Made by a program: the position numbers and the translations under genes. Positions 16,225 through 25,735 of a stretch of DNA of 64,000 bases are shown piece after piece. Below the pieces are notes generated by a model. That model made no database searches. It was not told the origin of the DNA and was given only the letters and a program-made list of their open reading frames with translations. Origin of the DNA: an uncultured Pelagibacteraceae bacterium. Its GTDB lineage: Bacteria > Pseudomonadota > Alphaproteobacteria > Pelagibacterales > Pelagibacteraceae. How positions within the stretch are numbered: position 1 is the stretch's first letter; each line of letters starts with the position of its first letter. The DNA lies in assembly GCA_902562875.1 (NCBI GenBank), contig CACEVB010000002.1:16941-80940 (forward strand), in the 5' to 3' direction.

Positions 16225-17211
16225 ATGTTAAAAAATACCATAAAAAAATTTTTTGTTAAAATTTCAAGAATGTTAGGTTTTGAAATTTTAGATCAAAATA
16301 AATTTGTTTCTCCGACTTTAAATAAAGAAATTAACCAAGAATTAAGTATCTTTAATGAGAAATCGATAGTAATCCCTCTTGGAGAAGTCAAAATAAAAAG
16401 AAAAGCAAAATCGTTACTTATTATATTTAGAACTAACAGCAATATAGAAATATGGGATCAAAATAAAAAAAGAGTTTTTGAAGAAAAAAAAATAAATTAT
16501 ATAAAAAAATCATTAAATTCTCTTATAAAAAGTATAAAATATAATAAAAAAATTTTACCTAAATTTGATATAAATCTAAAAATTCTAGACGATAATTCTA
16601 AACTAGAAAACTTAAACATTATAAAGAAAATATGTGAAGATAGTAATTTAGATTATGAATTAATTAATCATGATAGAGATAAATTTAAAGATTTTATTAA
16701 AAAACAAAAAACAGAGGACACATTTTCTAATTTATCTACTTTATTGACCTCATTTAATATAGGAAAAGATATTGGGAAAGATTTAATTTATTTTATCGAA
16801 GATGACTATATTCATTCAGAAAAGATGATAATTGAGGCTATAAAAACGTTTGAAAGAATAGCGTCTCAATTGGATAAAGATATATTTATTTGTCCCAGCG
16901 ATTACCCATATTTGTATATGAATAATGAAAAAACTAATGTTTTGATAGGAAGCGATAGACATTGGAGAACTATAAATAAAACATTATGCACATTTATGAC
17001 TACTAAAAATCTAATCGAAGAATATTGGACTAATTTTGAAAAAAATTGTGAGGATAGACATGACCCTTTTGAAAAATATTTAAACGAAATATATGAAAAA
17101 GAAATTTGTATTTCTCCTTTAAAAAGTCTTTCAACACATATGGCAAACATTAACTCTAGTTATGGTTTGTCTCCATTCATTAATTATAAAAAAATTTGGG
17201 AAGAAAATTAG
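16225..17211 (+). CDS. Putative glycosyltransferase (GT-A/GT2-like)
   Basis: ILDDNS and IYFIEDDYIH DxD-type motifs. Confidence 0.6.
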   Translation: MLKNTIKKFFVKISRMLGFEILDQNKFVSPTLNKEINQELSIFNEKSIVIPLGEVKIKRKAKSLLIIFRTNSNIEIWDQNKKRVFEEKKINYIKKSLNSLIKSIKYNKKILPKFDINLKILDDNSKLENLNIIKKICEDSNLDYELINHDRDKFKDFIKKQKTEDTFSNLSTLLTSFNIGKDIGKDLIYFIEDDYIHSEKMIIEAIKTFERIASQLDKDIFICPSDYPYLYMNNEKTNVLIGSDRHWRTINKTLCTFMTTKNLIEEYWTNFEKNCEDRHDPFEKYLNEIYEKEICISPLKSLSTHMANINSSYGLSPFINYKKIWEEN

Positions 17212-17265: not shown

Positions 17266-18561
17266 TTAGTCTCTTATTGCGTAAGCTATAACTCCAGTTT
17301 CAGATACATCTGTACCTTTCATTTCAGCTTCTTTACTCAATCTGATACCCATAGTTGCTTTCATACCTGACCATACAATTAATGAAACCACAAATACGAA
17401 TGCATTAATTGAAACAACTCCAAGAAGTTGAGCACCAAATGTAACTCCTGAATTAGTTATCGGCACTGCTAATGTTCCCCAGATACCTGCAAACAAGTGT
17501 GCAGGAATAGCTCCAACAACATCATCAATTTTTAGACTGAATAGTAGTTTAGTTCCATAAACAACTATAATACCACCAACACCACCAATTAAAATCGCAG
17601 CGATTGGAGACGGCATTAATGGTTCAGCAGTGATCGCAACCAAGCCACCAATACATCCATTAAGCATTTGCACTACATCTGTTTTTCCAGTTAATCTAGT
17701 GACTGCTGCAGCGGCCATTACACCACCTGCACCCGCTAATAATGTGTTTATAAAGATTTTAGATACTGCTATAGCATCTGGTGCTGTTCCAATTGCTAAT
17801 TGAGAACCACCATTAAATCCAAACCATCCTAACCATAGTATAAATACTCCTAGTGTTACGAGTGGTATTGATGAAGCTGCAAAAGGCTTGATAGGAGCTG
17901 CACCGGCTTTGGTAAATCTACCTAACCTAGGTCCTAGTAGCAATGCTCCTGCTAAAGCTGCTGCTCCTCCTGTCGAGTGAACAAGTGTTGAGCCTGCAAA
18001 ATCTGAAAAACCAGCCTTTGCTAACCAACCACCACCCCATTGCCAACCCATAACAATTGGATAAATAATTCCTGCTAAAATTGCAGCGAATAAAAAGAAC
18101 GGCCAAAGCTTAATTCTTTCAGCCAATGTTCCTGACACGATTGAAACTGTTGTTACACAAAATACCATTTGGAAATACCAATCTGATCCATCTGCATAAC
18201 CAGTATCGATTTTACTAGCGTCGCTCCATGGTACGAATTTTCCAATGTACCCTCCTTCTGGGATACCATATGCTAGGTTGTATCCAACTAACCAGAACAT
18301 TATTGCTCCAATAGATACTAAACCTATATTTTTTGCACAGATAACAGATACACTTTTTGATGTAACCATACCTGACTCTAACATTGCAAATCCGCAAGCC
18401 ATAAAAAAGACCAGGAACCCACACATTAAAAAAAGTAGAGTATTAAAAATAAACCCCACTTCTGCAGAAACTGTTGACTCTGCCATACCCACGTTAGTCA
18501 TGCTCATTAGAAACATGAAACTAATTGCGGGTGTGATAAATTTTTTTATAAATTTCCCCAT
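17266..18561 (-). CDS. amtB: Ammonium transporter
   Basis: GFAMLESG, FQMVF, AERIK, DFAGSTLVH, WFGFNGGS, DDVVGAIPAH. Confidence 0.97.
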   Translation of the reverse strand: MGKFIKKFITPAISFMFLMSMTNVGMAESTVSAEVGFIFNTLLFLMCGFLVFFMACGFAMLESGMVTSKSVSVICAKNIGLVSIGAIMFWLVGYNLAYGIPEGGYIGKFVPWSDASKIDTGYADGSDWYFQMVFCVTTVSIVSGTLAERIKLWPFFLFAAILAGIIYPIVMGWQWGGGWLAKAGFSDFAGSTLVHSTGGAAALAGALLLGPRLGRFTKAGAAPIKPFAASSIPLVTLGVFILWLGWFGFNGGSQLAIGTAPDAIAVSKIFINTLLAGAGGVMAAAAVTRLTGKTDVVQMLNGCIGGLVAITAEPLMPSPIAAILIGGVGGIIVVYGTKLLFSLKIDDVVGAIPAHLFAGIWGTLAVPITNSGVTFGAQLLGVVSINAFVFVVSLIVWSGMKATMGIRLSKEAEMKGTDVSETGVIAYAIRD

Positions 18562-20260: not shown

Positions 20261-21691
20261 TTACCTTAATTTCCAAGTGACAATAGGTGCAAATGTTGCA
20301 AATAAAAAAGACAAAAACAATAAAGATTGAGATACAAATGCTGGAAAAAAATCTACTGGAAATATTATTCCTACAAGTAATGATTTAGAAAAATCTGGAA
20401 ATGGAAATAGTAGAATCCCTAAAGTTAAGCCAAATATAATAGAAATATATGCTTTTTTTTCGTTAAATGATTTAGAATAAAATCCATAAAATACACTTAA
20501 TACAGCAGCACAACAAAATAGATCAGCTAATAAAAATAAATATAAAATACTTAATCCTTTTGATGCAATAAAAAAAGTTATTAACGAGAGAAACAAAATG
20601 ATTTTATTGGACAATTTTTGATAGTTACTTTTAAATTTTATCGCTTTTTTTCCGTCTACAATTATCAAGCTAGAAATACCATTTATCAACGTATCTATAC
20701 TACTTACTGTTAAAGAGATTGCCAAAAAAATTATTATTATAGACAAAATTTCTACTTGATCTTGAAACAACAATGAAAAAAATGCAAGGTCAGGAACAAC
20801 ATCTGAATTTTGAGAAACGGCTATAAGTCCGCTGAAACCCATTAAAAATACTATAGGTATTATTATTATAAAAGAAATAATTAAACTTTTTTTAAGCATT
20901 TTATTATTTTTTGCTGCATATACTCTTTGCCAGTTTCCTTGATGGAAAAGATTTGTTGCAGCAACTGCAATAAAAAAAGTTATTCCAGCTGTAAAATTAG
21001 GTAAATAGTTTGAGCTCAAAAGATTAGGTTTATTATTTCTAATAAAATCAAAACTAAATATTCCTTCATTAAACGATGTTAAATATGAGTAGGCAATTAC
21101 AATTAATATCCCAAAAATAATAAATTGAATATTGTCCGTAAATATTGATGCACGTAAACCACCATATAATGTATATGCAAGTGAACTTACAATAACTATT
21201 ATAGCTGTAATCCATAAATCAGTTCCTGAAATATAATTTAGTAAAATAGAAACAGCTGTAACCTCAGCAATCAAGAATATAGTCATGTAGAATATTGATA
21301 AAATTAAAATTAATTTAAAAAGTTTATGACCAAAATGTAATCTAATTACTTCGATTAGAGATTTACTATTTGGAAAAGATTTTCTGAATTTTTCTCCTAA
21401 ATAAATCAAAGCAAATAATGGAAAAGCTGTTCCTAACGCGTAGCCTATTACTGCTCCAACGCCTCCCCAGGTGGCGGCTGACGCAGGTCCAAACAATATC
21501 CAGGCCCCTAATGCTGAAGCAACTAGGCTAGTCGTTAGTGAGAATGTTTCAATACTTCTATTGGCTACTAAATAATTATTAATTCCTTTGAACCTTTTTG
21601 AATAAACAATTCCAATTATAGCAAATAGTGAACAAATAATTATAGTTATAGTTATTGAAAAAGATTGGCTTAGTAGATTTATTTTATTCAT
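20261..21691 (-). CDS. thiV: Sodium:solute symporter, ThiV-type thiamin-precursor (HMP) transporter
   Basis: SSS motifs (YTLYGGLRASIFTD, WQRVYAAK) plus an upstream TPP-type riboswitch. Confidence 0.8.
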   Translation of the reverse strand: MNKINLLSQSFSITITIIICSLFAIIGIVYSKRFKGINNYLVANRSIETFSLTTSLVASALGAWILFGPASAATWGGVGAVIGYALGTAFPLFALIYLGEKFRKSFPNSKSLIEVIRLHFGHKLFKLILILSIFYMTIFLIAEVTAVSILLNYISGTDLWITAIIVIVSSLAYTLYGGLRASIFTDNIQFIIFGILIVIAYSYLTSFNEGIFSFDFIRNNKPNLLSSNYLPNFTAGITFFIAVAATNLFHQGNWQRVYAAKNNKMLKKSLIISFIIIIPIVFLMGFSGLIAVSQNSDVVPDLAFFSLLFQDQVEILSIIIIFLAISLTVSSIDTLINGISSLIIVDGKKAIKFKSNYQKLSNKIILFLSLITFFIASKGLSILYLFLLADLFCCAAVLSVFYGFYSKSFNEKKAYISIIFGLTLGILLFPFPDFSKSLLVGIIFPVDFFPAFVSQSLLFLSFLFATFAPIVTWKLR

Positions 21692-21760
21692 TTATCCCTT
21701 TCTGAATTACCGGACAGGTTCATTGGGTTTAATCTCAGTCTTGCGACACCCCTCTAAAAA
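21690..21760 (-). ncRNA. TPP (THI-box)-family riboswitch, variant
   Basis: GGGGU-GUC-GCAA-GAC-UGAGA-UUAA-ACCC-AAUGAA-CCU-GU-CCGG-UAAU-UCAG-AA-AGG-GAUAAAUG: P2, P3 (GNRA loop), UGAGA, P4 and L5 UAAU are present; the SD overlaps P4/P1. Confidence 0.88.
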
Positions 21761-21776
21761 TATACAATTATTTATT

Positions 21777-22838
21777 TTAAAAGCAAACTAAATGTTTTAT
21801 GTGTATTGGTTTTTTAATTCCAAATGTATCATCTATTTGATGTTGATGAACATGGTGAGAATGTACGAATACTGATATATTTTTATTGCTTTTTGTTCTA
21901 AGAGTATAAATAAAGTTAGTCCCTTTAAATTTTTTATCAACTACATAAAGTTGTAAGTTACTTTTATCATCGTGTTCTAAATCTTCTGGTTGTAAGAGTA
22001 ATTTTACTTGTGTGCCTATTTTATGTTCATTTACAAAATTACCTTTTATAATCCCAAGGTCTTCATTCTCTAAAGTATACTGTCCAGTTACTATAGCTGG
22101 GACTAGAACACCCCTATTCAAAAAATTGACCACTTTCACAGAATTAGGATAATGATAAACATTATATGGCTCATCAAATTGTTTTAATTTTTTGTCAAGG
22201 ATAACACCACATTTATCACCTAAATAAAATGCCTCATTAGAGTCATGTGTGACAATTATAGTTGTAATTTTAAATTCTTTTAAAATTTTTTTTAATTTAA
22301 CCTGAATTTCTTCCTTAAAATTTTCATCTATGTTAGAAAGAGGTTCATCCAATAATAATAAATCTGGATTTGAAACTAGTGCCCTGGTTAATGAAGCTCT
22401 TTGAGCTTCGCCCGCACTTATTTGATGTGGGTATTTATTTAAGATTTTTTCTATGTTCAATATTTTAACAATTTTTTTTTGGTCTATTTTTTTTTTATAT
22501 GCAGCATTGTTTCTATTTGCTCCAAATTTAATATTTTTCTCAATTGTATAATGAGGAAATAAAGCATTTTCTTGAAATGACATGGAAATATTTCTATTTT
22601 CTGGATCAATATGATTTGAACTAGAAGATAAAACTTTTGATTTAAGTTTAATTGATCCTTTCTCAATTTTTTGAAGGCCAGCAATTGATCTTAGAATTGT
22701 TGTTTTTCCTATACCTGATGGGCCTAATAAGCAAATAATTTCTCCAGCTTTCCTAATATTTAGTGACAGGTTTTTAATCTTAACATTTCCATCAACTTGA
22801 AAATCAACATTTTTAATTTCTAAATAGTTTTTAGTCAT
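21777..22838 (-). CDS. fbpC: Fe(III) ABC transporter ATP-binding protein
   Basis: GPSGIGKT, LLLLDEP, VTHD; HSHHVHQH tail; operon context. Confidence 0.88.
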   Translation of the reverse strand: MTKNYLEIKNVDFQVDGNVKIKNLSLNIRKAGEIICLLGPSGIGKTTILRSIAGLQKIEKGSIKLKSKVLSSSSNHIDPENRNISMSFQENALFPHYTIEKNIKFGANRNNAAYKKKIDQKKIVKILNIEKILNKYPHQISAGEAQRASLTRALVSNPDLLLLDEPLSNIDENFKEEIQVKLKKILKEFKITTIIVTHDSNEAFYLGDKCGVILDKKLKQFDEPYNVYHYPNSVKVVNFLNRGVLVPAIVTGQYTLENEDLGIIKGNFVNEHKIGTQVKLLLQPEDLEHDDKSNLQLYVVDKKFKGTNFIYTLRTKSNKNISVFVHSHHVHQHQIDDTFGIKKPIHIKHLVCF

Positions 22839-24453
22839 TACTCTCTTTAAGAATATATTTAGATATTAGTATAATAAACAAACTTGCAATTAATACCAAA
22901 AATAAAGATGGTACCGCAGCCGCCTCCAGTAAATCCTGTGATGCATAAATATAGGCGGTTGTTGCAAATGTTTCAAAATTAAAAGGTCTTAAAATTAATG
23001 TTATTGGTAACTCTCTTATTATTTCTAGAGAAATTAGTATTGAAACAAAAAAAATCGAGCTTTTTAGGTAAGGAATATGAATATTTAAAAAAGTCTTAAA
23101 TTTTGAGTAACCTGCTAAGTAAGCACTTTCGTCTAAAGATTTACTTAATTTGTCATAGCTGGATTTTATCCCATTGCATGATAAAGAATAAAATCTAACA
23201 AAATATGCAATTATTAATCCAAATATAGAACCGATAAACATTTTTTTTATAGAATTTATTTCAAAGAAATTTATTATTGTATCATCAAACCATGCAACAA
23301 AAGTAATATATGCAACTGCTAAAATAACTCCAGGTAAAGCATATCCAGATATCGATATTGTTGTTAGAAAATTTAAAAACTTGCTATTGCTTACTCTGCT
23401 CCCGTAATTTGAAATAAAAGAGAAAATAATCAAAATTAAAGATGATAAAGAAACTAACAAAAGTGTGTTTAAAATTAATTCTCCAATATTTAAGTCAAAA
23501 TAATTTTTTGGATATAAGATTGTCCAATATAACATTTGAGCTATAGGGAATATAAAACTTAAAAAAAATATAATAAAGCAAATTAAAAAAGCTAAAAAAG
23601 AATTTAAACCATATAGTTTTATTCTTTCTATTTTTTTAAATCCACCTTGTAATGGTGAATGATATTTAGCTTTATTTCTAGAAAAGTTTTCAACTATAAA
23701 AAAAGTAAAAATAAAAAGTAACAAATAAAATGATAATTGATTAGAAAAAACTAAATCATCAAAAGATAACCAAGAATTATAGATTGCTGTTGTTAGTGTA
23801 TTAATGCTAAAAAAATCAACTGCCCCAAAATCAGACAAGGTTTCCATTGCGACCAGAGCCAATCCGGCTACAATCGCAGGTCTAGCTGACGGTATTATAA
23901 TCTTAAATAATGATCTAAATTTTGTAAAACCTAAATTTCTACCTAGCTCTATTAAATTATATGATTGGTAAAAAAATGATGCTCTAGTTAATATATATAC
24001 ATAAGCATAAATCGAAAATGAAATAGATAATATGGCTCCAATCATACCGTCAAATTTTGGAATATATGAATTATAATTTCCCTCACCAAATAGTGACTTT
24101 AGAATTGTAAATGCCGTTCCATAGTTTTCAAAAAAAGCTGTTAACGAATATGCATAAATATATGGTGGCACAGCAAAACCTAATATTAATGACCATTTGA
24201 AAAAATTTACAAAAGGAAATGAGTAAAATGATACTAAGTAAGCTGAGCTAACACCAAATATTAATGTTAAAAATAAAACTCCCAATAAAAGTATAAATGA
24301 ATTTGATATATATTCGAATAAAAATGTATCTTTTAAAATTTCAAAATAATTGCTTGTGTTTTCAAAGAAACTAAAGAAAACAGTAATAACAGGTAAAATT
24401 ACAATAAGTGATATTAAAAAAGTGCTTATATACCAAATGTTAAAATTTTTCAT
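22831..24453 (-). CDS. fbpB: Fe(III) ABC transporter permease
   Basis: Duplicated permease, ARPAIVAG, METLSDFGAV, ELPITLILRPFNFET. Confidence 0.92.
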   Translation of the reverse strand: MKNFNIWYISTFLISLIVILPVITVFFSFFENTSNYFEILKDTFLFEYISNSFILLLGVLFLTLIFGVSSAYLVSFYSFPFVNFFKWSLILGFAVPPYIYAYSLTAFFENYGTAFTILKSLFGEGNYNSYIPKFDGMIGAILSISFSIYAYVYILTRASFFYQSYNLIELGRNLGFTKFRSLFKIIIPSARPAIVAGLALVAMETLSDFGAVDFFSINTLTTAIYNSWLSFDDLVFSNQLSFYLLLFIFTFFIVENFSRNKAKYHSPLQGGFKKIERIKLYGLNSFLAFLICFIIFFLSFIFPIAQMLYWTILYPKNYFDLNIGELILNTLLLVSLSSLILIIFSFISNYGSRVSNSKFLNFLTTISISGYALPGVILAVAYITFVAWFDDTIINFFEINSIKKMFIGSIFGLIIAYFVRFYSLSCNGIKSSYDKLSKSLDESAYLAGYSKFKTFLNIHIPYLKSSIFFVSILISLEIIRELPITLILRPFNFETFATTAYIYASQDLLEAAAVPSLFLVLIASLFIILISKYILKESND

Positions 24454-24484
24454 TTAACTAATTTTTAACCATGAAAAATTAGGT

Positions 24485-24518
24485 GTGTCCACAATAAAGG
24501 AGACTTTATCGTGGACAC
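24485..24518 (-). other. 15-bp stem-loop between fbpA and fbpB
   Basis: Minus strand GUGUCCAC-G-AUAAAG-UCUC-CUUUAU-U-GUGGACAC, followed by ACCUAAUUUUU. Confidence 0.75.
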
Positions 24519-24531
24519 TAAATTGAAAAAT

Positions 24532-24705
24532 CTATTTATTAAAAACTTTTAGGATTTGCGGAAATTCCTTAGTTTCTATTTTAGATATTTCTCTCCCATT
24601 TATTCTTCTATTGATCTTTTCACACTCCGAAGCACACGTAGGGCATGCTTCGGAAGATTTATTTAGATCAATCTCTTGAATAAATTCTTTATCTCTAGTT
24701 GACAT
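24532..24705 (-). CDS. 57-aa micro-ORF with a CPTCxxxC motif inside the iron operon
   Basis: Manual translation MSTRDKEFIQEIDLNKSSEACPTCASECEKINRRINGREISKIETKEFPQILKVFNK; starts 1 nt after the fbpA stop; overlaps a hairpin at 24626-24654. Confidence 0.55.
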   Translation of the reverse strand: MSTRDKEFIQEIDLNKSSEACPTCASECEKINRRINGREISKIETKEFPQILKVFNK

Positions 24706-24706
24706 A

Positions 24707-25735
24707 TTATTTCCAACCAGCTCCTGTCATTGCTGTAACGGCCGCTGCTTGATTTTTTCCATAATTAACAACTTTAGTTTTTAGATCTTGTTTAAAATCT
24801 AATCCCATGTTTACAACTAATTCATGAGGTGAAACACCTGCAATCATTGGATACTCAAAAGTATTATTTACAATATGTTCCTGAGCTTCTTTGCTAAGTA
24901 AAAATTCTACTAGAGCAATTGCATTAGATTTATTTGGAGCACCTTTCACTAAACCTGCACAACTAATATTCATATGTGTTCCTCTGCCATCCTGATTAGG
25001 GAAAAATGGTTTAACTTTTTTAGCAGCTTCTTGTTGCTCCGCTCCTTTTTTTCCCGATAACATTAAAGCCAAATAGTAAGTATTAGCTACAGCAATATCT
25101 GCTTCACCAGCTGCAACAGCCATAATTTGTGCCCTGTCGTTACCTTTTGGAGTCCTTGCCATGTTAGACACGACTCCCTCTGCCCAAGCTTCTGTTGCTT
25201 TTTTTCCATTATTTTTAATTAGTGAAGCTACTAATGATTGGTTATAGATGTTGTTTGATTTTCTAATTACTAATCTACCTTTCCATTTTGGATCGGCTAA
25301 ACTTTCATAAGTTAAACCAGCTAATTCAGCTCCAGTTACTCTCTCTGGTGCAAAGTAAACTATTCTTGCTCTTTTAGCTATCCCAACCCAGCTTGATGTT
25401 CTAAAGTTTTTTGGAACTGCTGATTTTATTGCATCAGAGGATAATCCTGCTTGCAACATTCCTTTGGATTTAAATGCTCCACATCTTCCTGCATCAGCAG
25501 TAATGTAAAGATCTGCGGTTCCGCCGCCCTCTTCAATTATCCTTTTTTCTAAAGCCCCTGATTTCCCAGAAACAACATTTACTTTAATTCCAGAATTTGC
25601 AGTAAACTTTTCATATAGTTGAATATCACTATCATAGTGTCTTGCGCTATAAACGTTAACAACACCGTGGCCATCTGCAAGTGCTGGACCTAACAATAAT
25701 GAAAATATTATTGCTATCGAACTTAACAATCTCAT
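24707..25735 (-). CDS. fbpA: Fe(III) ABC transporter substrate-binding protein (FutA/FbpA/SfuC type)
   Basis: Signal peptide, VYSARHY, YNQSL, GNDRAQI, ANTYY iron-ligand tyrosines; AAGGAGAG SD. Confidence 0.95.
   Translation of the reverse strand: MRLLSSIAIIFSLLLGPALADGHGVVNVYSARHYDSDIQLYEKFTANSGIKVNVVSGKSGALEKRIIEEGGGTADLYITADAGRCGAFKSKGMLQAGLSSDAIKSAVPKNFRTSSWVGIAKRARIVYFAPERVTGAELAGLTYESLADPKWKGRLVIRKSNNIYNQSLVASLIKNNGKKATEAWAEGVVSNMARTPKGNDRAQIMAVAAGEADIAVANTYYLALMLSGKKGAEQQEAAKKVKPFFPNQDGRGTHMNISCAGLVKGAPNKSNAIALVEFLLSKEAQEHIVNNTFEYPMIAGVSPHELVVNMGLDFKQDLKTKVVNYGKNQAAAVTAMTGAGWK

Follow-up and report, generated by a model that had tools for sequence, protein, structure and literature searches.

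The best-studied relative of the element that we describe here is the thiamin pyrophosphate (TPP) riboswitch of E. coli thiM. In thiM, G40, G42, and A43 contact the pyrimidine ring of the ligand (PMC7824784); C77 and G78 bond the β-phosphate, G60 and A61 coordinate magnesium, and G72 touches the thiazole (structural literature on thiM, including PMC7824784). Our element is the leader of a thiV gene in a 64,000-nt stretch of DNA (the window) from an uncultured Pelagibacteraceae bacterium (positions 16,941 to 80,940 of contig CACEVB010000002.1). An earlier note, made from the sequence alone, described it as a member of the TPP family with an intact pyrimidine sensor and a degenerate pyrophosphate sensor. 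We confirmed that it is a TPP-family aptamer which retains the pyrimidine sensor and has lost the residues that hold magnesium-pyrophosphate. The bacterium belongs to SAR11, the most abundant bacteria in the ocean, which are auxotrophic for HMP (4-amino-5-hydroxymethyl-2-methylpyrimidine), the vitamin B1 precursor that ThiV imports.

TPP riboswitches with an altered pyrophosphate site have been reported before. A large collection of variants with a mutated pyrophosphate-binding core binds thiamin, thiamin monophosphate (TMP), and TPP about equally well (McCown 2017, PMC5473149). These P4-P5 mutants occur in many bacteria, and the source cited for them is Roth et al., in preparation (PMC5473149); our literature search did not find a published version of that study. 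They share with the thiV leader that the mutations are confined to the pyrophosphate-binding core. The HMP pyrophosphate (HMP-PP) riboswitch, or thiS motif, acts in the same pathway and senses a pyrimidine precursor, but it is a small ON switch that is embedded in a terminator and has a pseudoknot (Atilho et al. 2019, PMC6478431). A 2024 study of SAR11 strain HTCC7211 judged a tandem TPP/HMP-PP system to be unlikely. We found no match of the HMP-PP riboswitch model to the thiV leader at E-values of up to 10, and a terminator search at the leader found none.

As to how such an RNA might act, SAM-II, the SAM-V of SAR11, and preQ1-II have the Shine-Dalgarno (SD) sequence inside the aptamer, and the ligand-stabilised aptamer fold hides the ribosome-binding site. 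The thiV leader would work like these, as a very short leader in a streamlined genome, but their folds and ligands are unrelated to its own. SAM-II is listed in Ca. P. ubique by PMC2704228, which also lists our element, before SAR11_0811, as a TPP riboswitch.

The Rfam model for the TPP riboswitch (RF00059) matches the minus strand of the window at 21678-21763, the place that the earlier note had given. In a permissive cmscan of positions 21500-21950, the score is 39.3 bits, 15 bits below the gathering score of 54.3. (At gathering thresholds, Rfam has no matches in the whole window.) The E-value is 2.4e-6 in this 451-nt stretch and 1.4e-6 in a search of the bacterium's whole 1.07-Mb genome, where this is the sole credible TPP match. 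We considered a second match in that genome, with 16.4 bits and an E-value of 0.6, to be noise. Scores below the cut-off are the rule for this element. All 28 of the thiV orthologues that we first fetched, from 60 relatives, have a sub-threshold match directly upstream (35.7-51.6 bits). Across 151 genomes of the order, 138 have exactly one match, and the cut-off was exceeded in only 9.

The gene behind the leader (20261-21691, minus strand) encodes a 476-amino-acid sodium:solute symporter (PF00474, 68.2 bits), and it is of the ThiV type described for SAR11; its orthologues behind the same type of leader are 61-100% identical. The start codon, as read from the sequence and the open reading frame, is the AUG at 21691-21689. 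The RF00059 match reaches this codon, and the aptamer occupies the entire 85-nt spacer after the upstream gene, which ends at 21777.

On the pyrimidine side, the element looks like other TPP riboswitches (all positions are on the minus strand). The 5' strand of P2 is an A followed by GGGG (21753-21749), and the GGGG (21752-21749) is invariant; the 3' strand of P2, ACCC (21728-21725), is invariant as well. The pairs of P2 are kept in 100% of leaders, and the outer pair covaries. In most relatives, the A before GGGG pairs with the base after ACCC, while in this genome the two form an A.A mismatch. P3 is a minimal hairpin, GUC/GAC with a GCAA loop (21747-21738), and it lacks P3a. Its pairs covary: among 69 distinct leaders without the CG of J5/4 (hereafter, CG-less leaders), one is UA in 48 and CG in 19, and another is CG in 57, UG in 9, and UA in 3. 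J3/2 is CUGAGA (21738-21733), which is invariant in all of the leaders. It is the sensor for the HMP ring and includes the counterparts of G40, G42, and A43 of thiM. The earlier note had called P2, P3, and UGAGA canonical, and they are.

The other arm is reduced. Conservation, covariation, and alignment with thiM place a P4/P5 arm, CCU-G-UCCGG-UAAU-UCAGA-A-AGG, at 21718-21697. P4 has 3 base pairs (bp), and a G.A mismatch (21715/21700) sits where the pyrophosphate pocket was. P5 contains a mismatched C.A (21712/21703), is closed by a G.U pair, and has UAAU as its loop. An SD-like sequence, AAGGGA (21700-21695), contains the 3' strand of P4 (AGG, 21699-21697), and the AUG of thiV starts 3 nt after it. 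The SD is inside the aptamer and adjoins the start codon, just as the earlier note had it.

Relative to thiM, both the sequences and the cmscan alignments show a clean deletion of two bases from each strand of the internal loop, namely A61-U62 and C77-G78. (The arm of E. coli thiM quoted in the earlier note is accurate: of 5426 complete E. coli genomes, 5404 have it before thiM, within a riboswitch that is annotated as TPP.) Of the pocket bases in the internal loop, which are G60, A61, C77, and G78, only the equivalent of G60 survives. Also, U79 is replaced by A, A67 and G72 are replaced by G and U, which can pair with each other, and the third pair of P5 has become C.A. The two RNAs do not differ in the length of P4, of P5 (four pairs), or of the region of six bases around L5 (GUAAUU instead of AUAAUG). 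In the terms of the earlier note, the CG of J5/4 is indeed gone and J4/5 is shortened (as is J5/4), and the C-A mismatch in P5 is real, being kept in 63 of the 69 distinct leaders; L5, counted with its closing pair, is not shortened.

Overall, the thiV leader shares with RF00059 and thiM P2, P3, the CUGAGA pyrimidine sensor, the CCU/AGG of P4, a P5 of 4 bp, and UAAU at the core of L5, and it shares with the family its place before a transporter gene of the thiamin pathway. It differs in its score, in its missing A61, U62, C77, and G78, in the identity of bases 79 (A) and 72 (U), and in its conserved C.A in P5, and it lacks P3a, a detectable P1, and a separate expression platform. In other words, the leader descends from a TPP riboswitch but departs from the family in three features that we tested: its score is under the curated one, and both the loop for pyrophosphate and the P1 helix are missing.

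To see how widespread the reduced arm is, we fetched leader regions and typed the arms of 163 species. This type occurs in 111 of the Pelagibacter species sampled, and the 25-nt arm is identical in 109 of them. The other two have a C.A to U-A change and a G.U to A-U change, both of which restore pairing. The arm is this constant even though the identity of ThiV drops to 61% and P3 covaries. Genera g8 and g10 (HIMB058-like) retain the CG-less design, but the first pair of P5 is flipped from U-A to A-U, and the base opposite the G is A or G. In genus g6 (Fonsibacter-like), the arm is also CG-less, with GG opposite a U and a P5 of AUUGG/UCAAU that has no mismatch. This makes four genera with the CG-less design. 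In the 69 distinct leaders that are CG-less, the paired fraction of cells is 93%; one pair of P5 is UA in 58 and AU in 11, and another is CG in 64 and UA in 5. The UAAU of L5 is invariant, and the P4-P5 helix is backed by both the covariation and the pair-restoring changes. Since the arm is invariant, covaries, and is retained across genera, its changes are neither private to this genome nor the result of decay. The earlier note had asked if the loss of CG is conserved in the thiV leaders of SAR11, and would have read private substitutions as decay or error; 109 species with the same arm and four CG-less genera settle this in favour of conservation.

Other SAR11 leaders are less reduced. A second group of Pelagibacter (12 species, whose ThiV is about 49% identical) has lost only the AU of J4/5 and retains CGA, and the arm of genus g7 is similar. 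Genus g5 and a second family of the order have canonical GAU...CG(G/U) arms. In a tree of ThiV, canonical g5, the CGA type, and g7 are split from our type, g8/g10, and g6 with 100% local support. (The tree was built with FastTree and was rooted at its midpoint, so the direction of change is inferred.) Full loss of CG therefore lies on one side of one branch, which is compatible with a single origin, and the CG-less arm has persisted as the identity of ThiV fell to about 47-56%. We also scanned 185,579 species genomes for the pattern of the variant arm, which matched at least 120 stretches. Among the matches listed (80 records), all are from Pelagibacterales except for one contig, CAYTIE010000064.1 (2.9 kb), which is filed in a "Flavobacteriaceae" metagenome-assembled genome. 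This contig has a SAR11 leader, a ThiV that is 80% identical, and a GC content of 25.6%, and it is probably a mis-binned SAR11-like contig.

The survey also turned up a few loci with other arrangements. Two genomes have, in addition to the thiV leader, a second match to RF00059 that is weak and longer, at 109 nt (G161:C57:554-662, 26.4 bits, and G148:C4:107555-107663, 24.1 bits). One genome of g5 has a canonical TPP riboswitch before a 254-amino-acid short-chain dehydrogenase instead of thiV (L035:1498-2343, plus strand); this protein resembles the OarX candidates for thiamin salvage (PMC11223231). One genome of g7 has the riboswitch before a 225-amino-acid Gcw_chp protein (PF09694, 59 bits; L055:1498-2251, plus strand), which could be an unrecognised envelope protein related to thiamin or HMP.

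We asked whether the loss of CG is linked to a change in the thiamin pathway. Within the family, we found no such link: ThiE is present in all 123 of the genomes searched, whether the arm is canonical or reduced, and canonical and CG-less leaders are found before orthologous thiV genes. The loss thus came with no change of pathway there. The genome that our window comes from (87% complete) encodes ThiD, ThiE, and a ThiL-like protein, and we did not find ThiC in it, which fits the known auxotrophy for HMP. The second family (g2-g4) is different. ThiE was found in none of its 27 genomes, and its canonical TPP riboswitch, with P3a, precedes a ThiB-like secreted binding protein of an ATP-binding cassette (ABC) importer (SBP_bac_6, roughly 298-328 amino acids; L041:623-1605, L038:526-1605, and L075:827-1803, all on the minus strand). 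The missing ThiE suggests that the second family imports intact thiamin rather than HMP.

How might the leader act? We sought a P1 helix, which the earlier note does not discuss, in the canonical register and at offsets from it, and did not find one. The best helix between the 5' and 3' sides averages 3.11 bp, versus 3.10 bp if the partners are swapped between species, and some species have none. Similarly, RNAalifold predicts P2 (with one additional covarying pair), P3, P4, and P5, but not P1. In the relatives g5, g6, and g7, a P1 of 4-6 bp (for example, GUUUUC/GAAAAC) joins the base of P2 to the stretch from the SD to the AUG, and canonical SAR11 relatives have, as our leader does, the SD within the region of P4 and P1. 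In 107 of 109 leaders of our type, the start codon of thiV is 2-5 nt after the aptamer and its SD. Given this arrangement, we infer that the leader acts on translation, with stabilisation of P4/P5 hiding the SD: because AAGGGA includes the 3' strand of P4, folding of the arm should block translation.

The two mismatches may have a role in this. The isolated arm is predicted to fold with a free energy of -3.9 kcal/mol. This would be -8.6 if the C.A were repaired, -8.2 if the G.A were repaired, and -12.9 with both repaired, while canonical arms range from -6 to -8.5. The conserved mismatches may keep the helix that holds the SD in a switchable range after the deletion of the internal loop. A role in weakening the helix would account for the conservation of the mismatches without any contacts to the ligand.

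Putting these features together, we propose that the leader arose from a TPP riboswitch by streamlining and that it keeps ThiV, the HMP importer, from being translated. The pyrimidine pocket would still be built by the P2/P3 arm and its CUGAGA. The P4/P5 arm, which has lost the loop for magnesium-pyrophosphate, would now form an almost uninterrupted helix that contains the conserved G.A and C.A. If the ligand helps the two hairpins to dock, through the pyrimidine pocket and a contact between L5 and P3, this would stabilise P4/P5, which would mask the ribosome-binding site directly, with no separate expression platform. At low concentrations of ligand, the two mismatches would leave the helix weak enough to open.

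What is the ligand? We give roughly even odds to a leader that reads its ligand through the aminopyrimidine, and perhaps the thiazolium, and that hardly or not at all distinguishes ligands by their number of phosphates, so that it would report the pool of TMP and TPP. This is what the P4-P5 mutants would lead one to expect, and for cells unable to import thiamin, a readout of TMP and TPP would amount to end-product feedback on the import of HMP.

Several points weigh against this proposal. The statement from 2017 rests on unpublished work and does not specify the variants, so it may not fit the SAR11 architecture. The 2024 study of HMP uptake in HTCC7211 describes the ligand specificity of the element as still to be confirmed. 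That the 25 nt are perfectly invariant, down to the two mismatches, suggests a rebuilt pocket more than a relaxation of specificity. Since these cells do not use free thiamin as a nutrient, it is not obvious what a thiamin-type sensor would offer them that a sensor of TPP would not. As for the fold, prediction of the minimum free energy structure from the single sequence does not recover the arm, and the predicted stability is no better than that of shuffled sequences (z = +1.07). And as for the transcript, a scan for sigma-70 promoters found none on the minus strand at the leader, and a position profile of 103 upstream flanks has only weak AT-rich signals and a conserved AA directly before GGGG, so neither places a transcription start.

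Instead, in line with the earlier note, the element might have switched ligands and might sense the pyrimidine moiety itself, either as HMP, which is what the transporter carries, or as its kinase products, HMP phosphate (HMP-P) or HMP-PP. Import would then close when the pyrimidine pool is full, regardless of the supply of thiazole. We think this is unlikely, though several points favour it. The pyrimidine pocket is fully kept, while the bases that read pyrophosphate at the distance found in TPP and the thiazole contact G72 are gone or changed, and the new arm is very strongly constrained, its mismatches too. Also, thiV is the only thiamin gene under riboswitch control in these genomes, and HMP is the compound that is imported. 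Against this, the canonical pocket alone reportedly binds pyrimidine fragments only weakly, as judged from fragment studies on thiM. Sister lineages that have ThiE and an orthologous thiV keep canonical or CG-containing arms, and the permissive Rfam scan of the leader did not match the HMP-PP riboswitch family. The precedent of the P4-P5 mutants concerns thiamin, TMP, and TPP rather than HMP (PMC5473149). In favour of an HMP-type sensor, uptake attenuates within an hour of exposure to HMP (2024 study of HTCC7211). A bolder form of this idea is that the leader, lacking both CG and P1, represents a ligand class that is new to the TPP fold, which would sense an aminopyrimidine (HMP, HMP-P, or HMP-PP) with the G.A and C.A forming a rebuilt half-pocket. 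That seems quite doubtful to us.

Or the leader might still be selective for TPP and might read the pyrophosphate in another way, such as by a magnesium ion bridged to the equivalent of G60 and the purine opposite it. The G of CCUG, which is the G60 equivalent, is invariant except for one Fonsibacter-like leader from g6 (CCUUG), and a purine lies opposite it in Pelagibacter, as in g8/g10. The gene context and the pathway are the same as in the canonical lineages, and the literature refers to the element as a TPP riboswitch. But four of the five pocket residues have been deleted, and the base opposite the G varies (U in the Fonsibacter-like genus, A or G in the others), so it is not a fixed contact. 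The arm is also two layers shorter, which alters its distance to the pyrimidine pocket. On balance, a TPP-selective leader strikes us as improbable, though not far-fetched.

Finally, the leader could be a decaying or ligand-independent remnant that is now merely a ribosome-binding region, as hinted by the score under Rfam's cut-off, the undetected P1, the weak predicted fold, and the description of HMP uptake in HTCC7211 as constitutive (2024 study), but this is very hard to believe given that the pocket bases of the pyrimidine arm and the 25-nt arm are invariant across more than 100 species, that P3 and P5 covary, and that the leader was retained as ThiV diverged to about 47% identity.

Upstream of thiV and on the same strand, the window encodes an ABC importer (21777-25735), which comprises a 342-amino-acid binding protein, a 540-amino-acid permease with two domains, and a 353-amino-acid ATPase. 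To judge by the binding protein and the permease, the importer resembles systems for iron or phosphonate rather than for thiamin. Only 13 nt separate the stop codon of the ATPase from the Rfam match, and the leader may be co-transcribed with the importer. Elsewhere in the window, an ammonium transporter of the "marine subtype" (TIGR03644, 543.7 bits; 17266-18561, minus strand) fits a SAR11 genome.

The idea of TPP variants with mutations in P4-P5 is already in the literature. In the papers that we searched, the specific architecture appears to be undescribed: the deletion of two bases from each strand, the conserved mismatches, the loss of P1, the SD inside P4, the apparent single origin, and the graded series within SAR11. 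Before orthologous thiV genes, SAR11 provides a natural series that runs from canonical through half-reduced to fully reduced arms, some with P1 and some lacking it. This series bears on how the pocket of a riboswitch is remodelled and on how small a switch with the TPP fold can become.

The name "TPP riboswitch" in the literature contrasts with the deleted reader of pyrophosphate that we see in the sequence. To our knowledge, ThiV is the only route by which SAR11 bacteria obtain vitamin B1, and the leader is the sole thiamin-related riboswitch in their genomes, so its ligand sets how a large share of the ocean's bacteria respond to picomolar HMP. If the leader is a sensor of aminopyrimidines, then the most abundant marine bacteria would gate the import of HMP on their pyrimidine pool, not on the finished cofactor.
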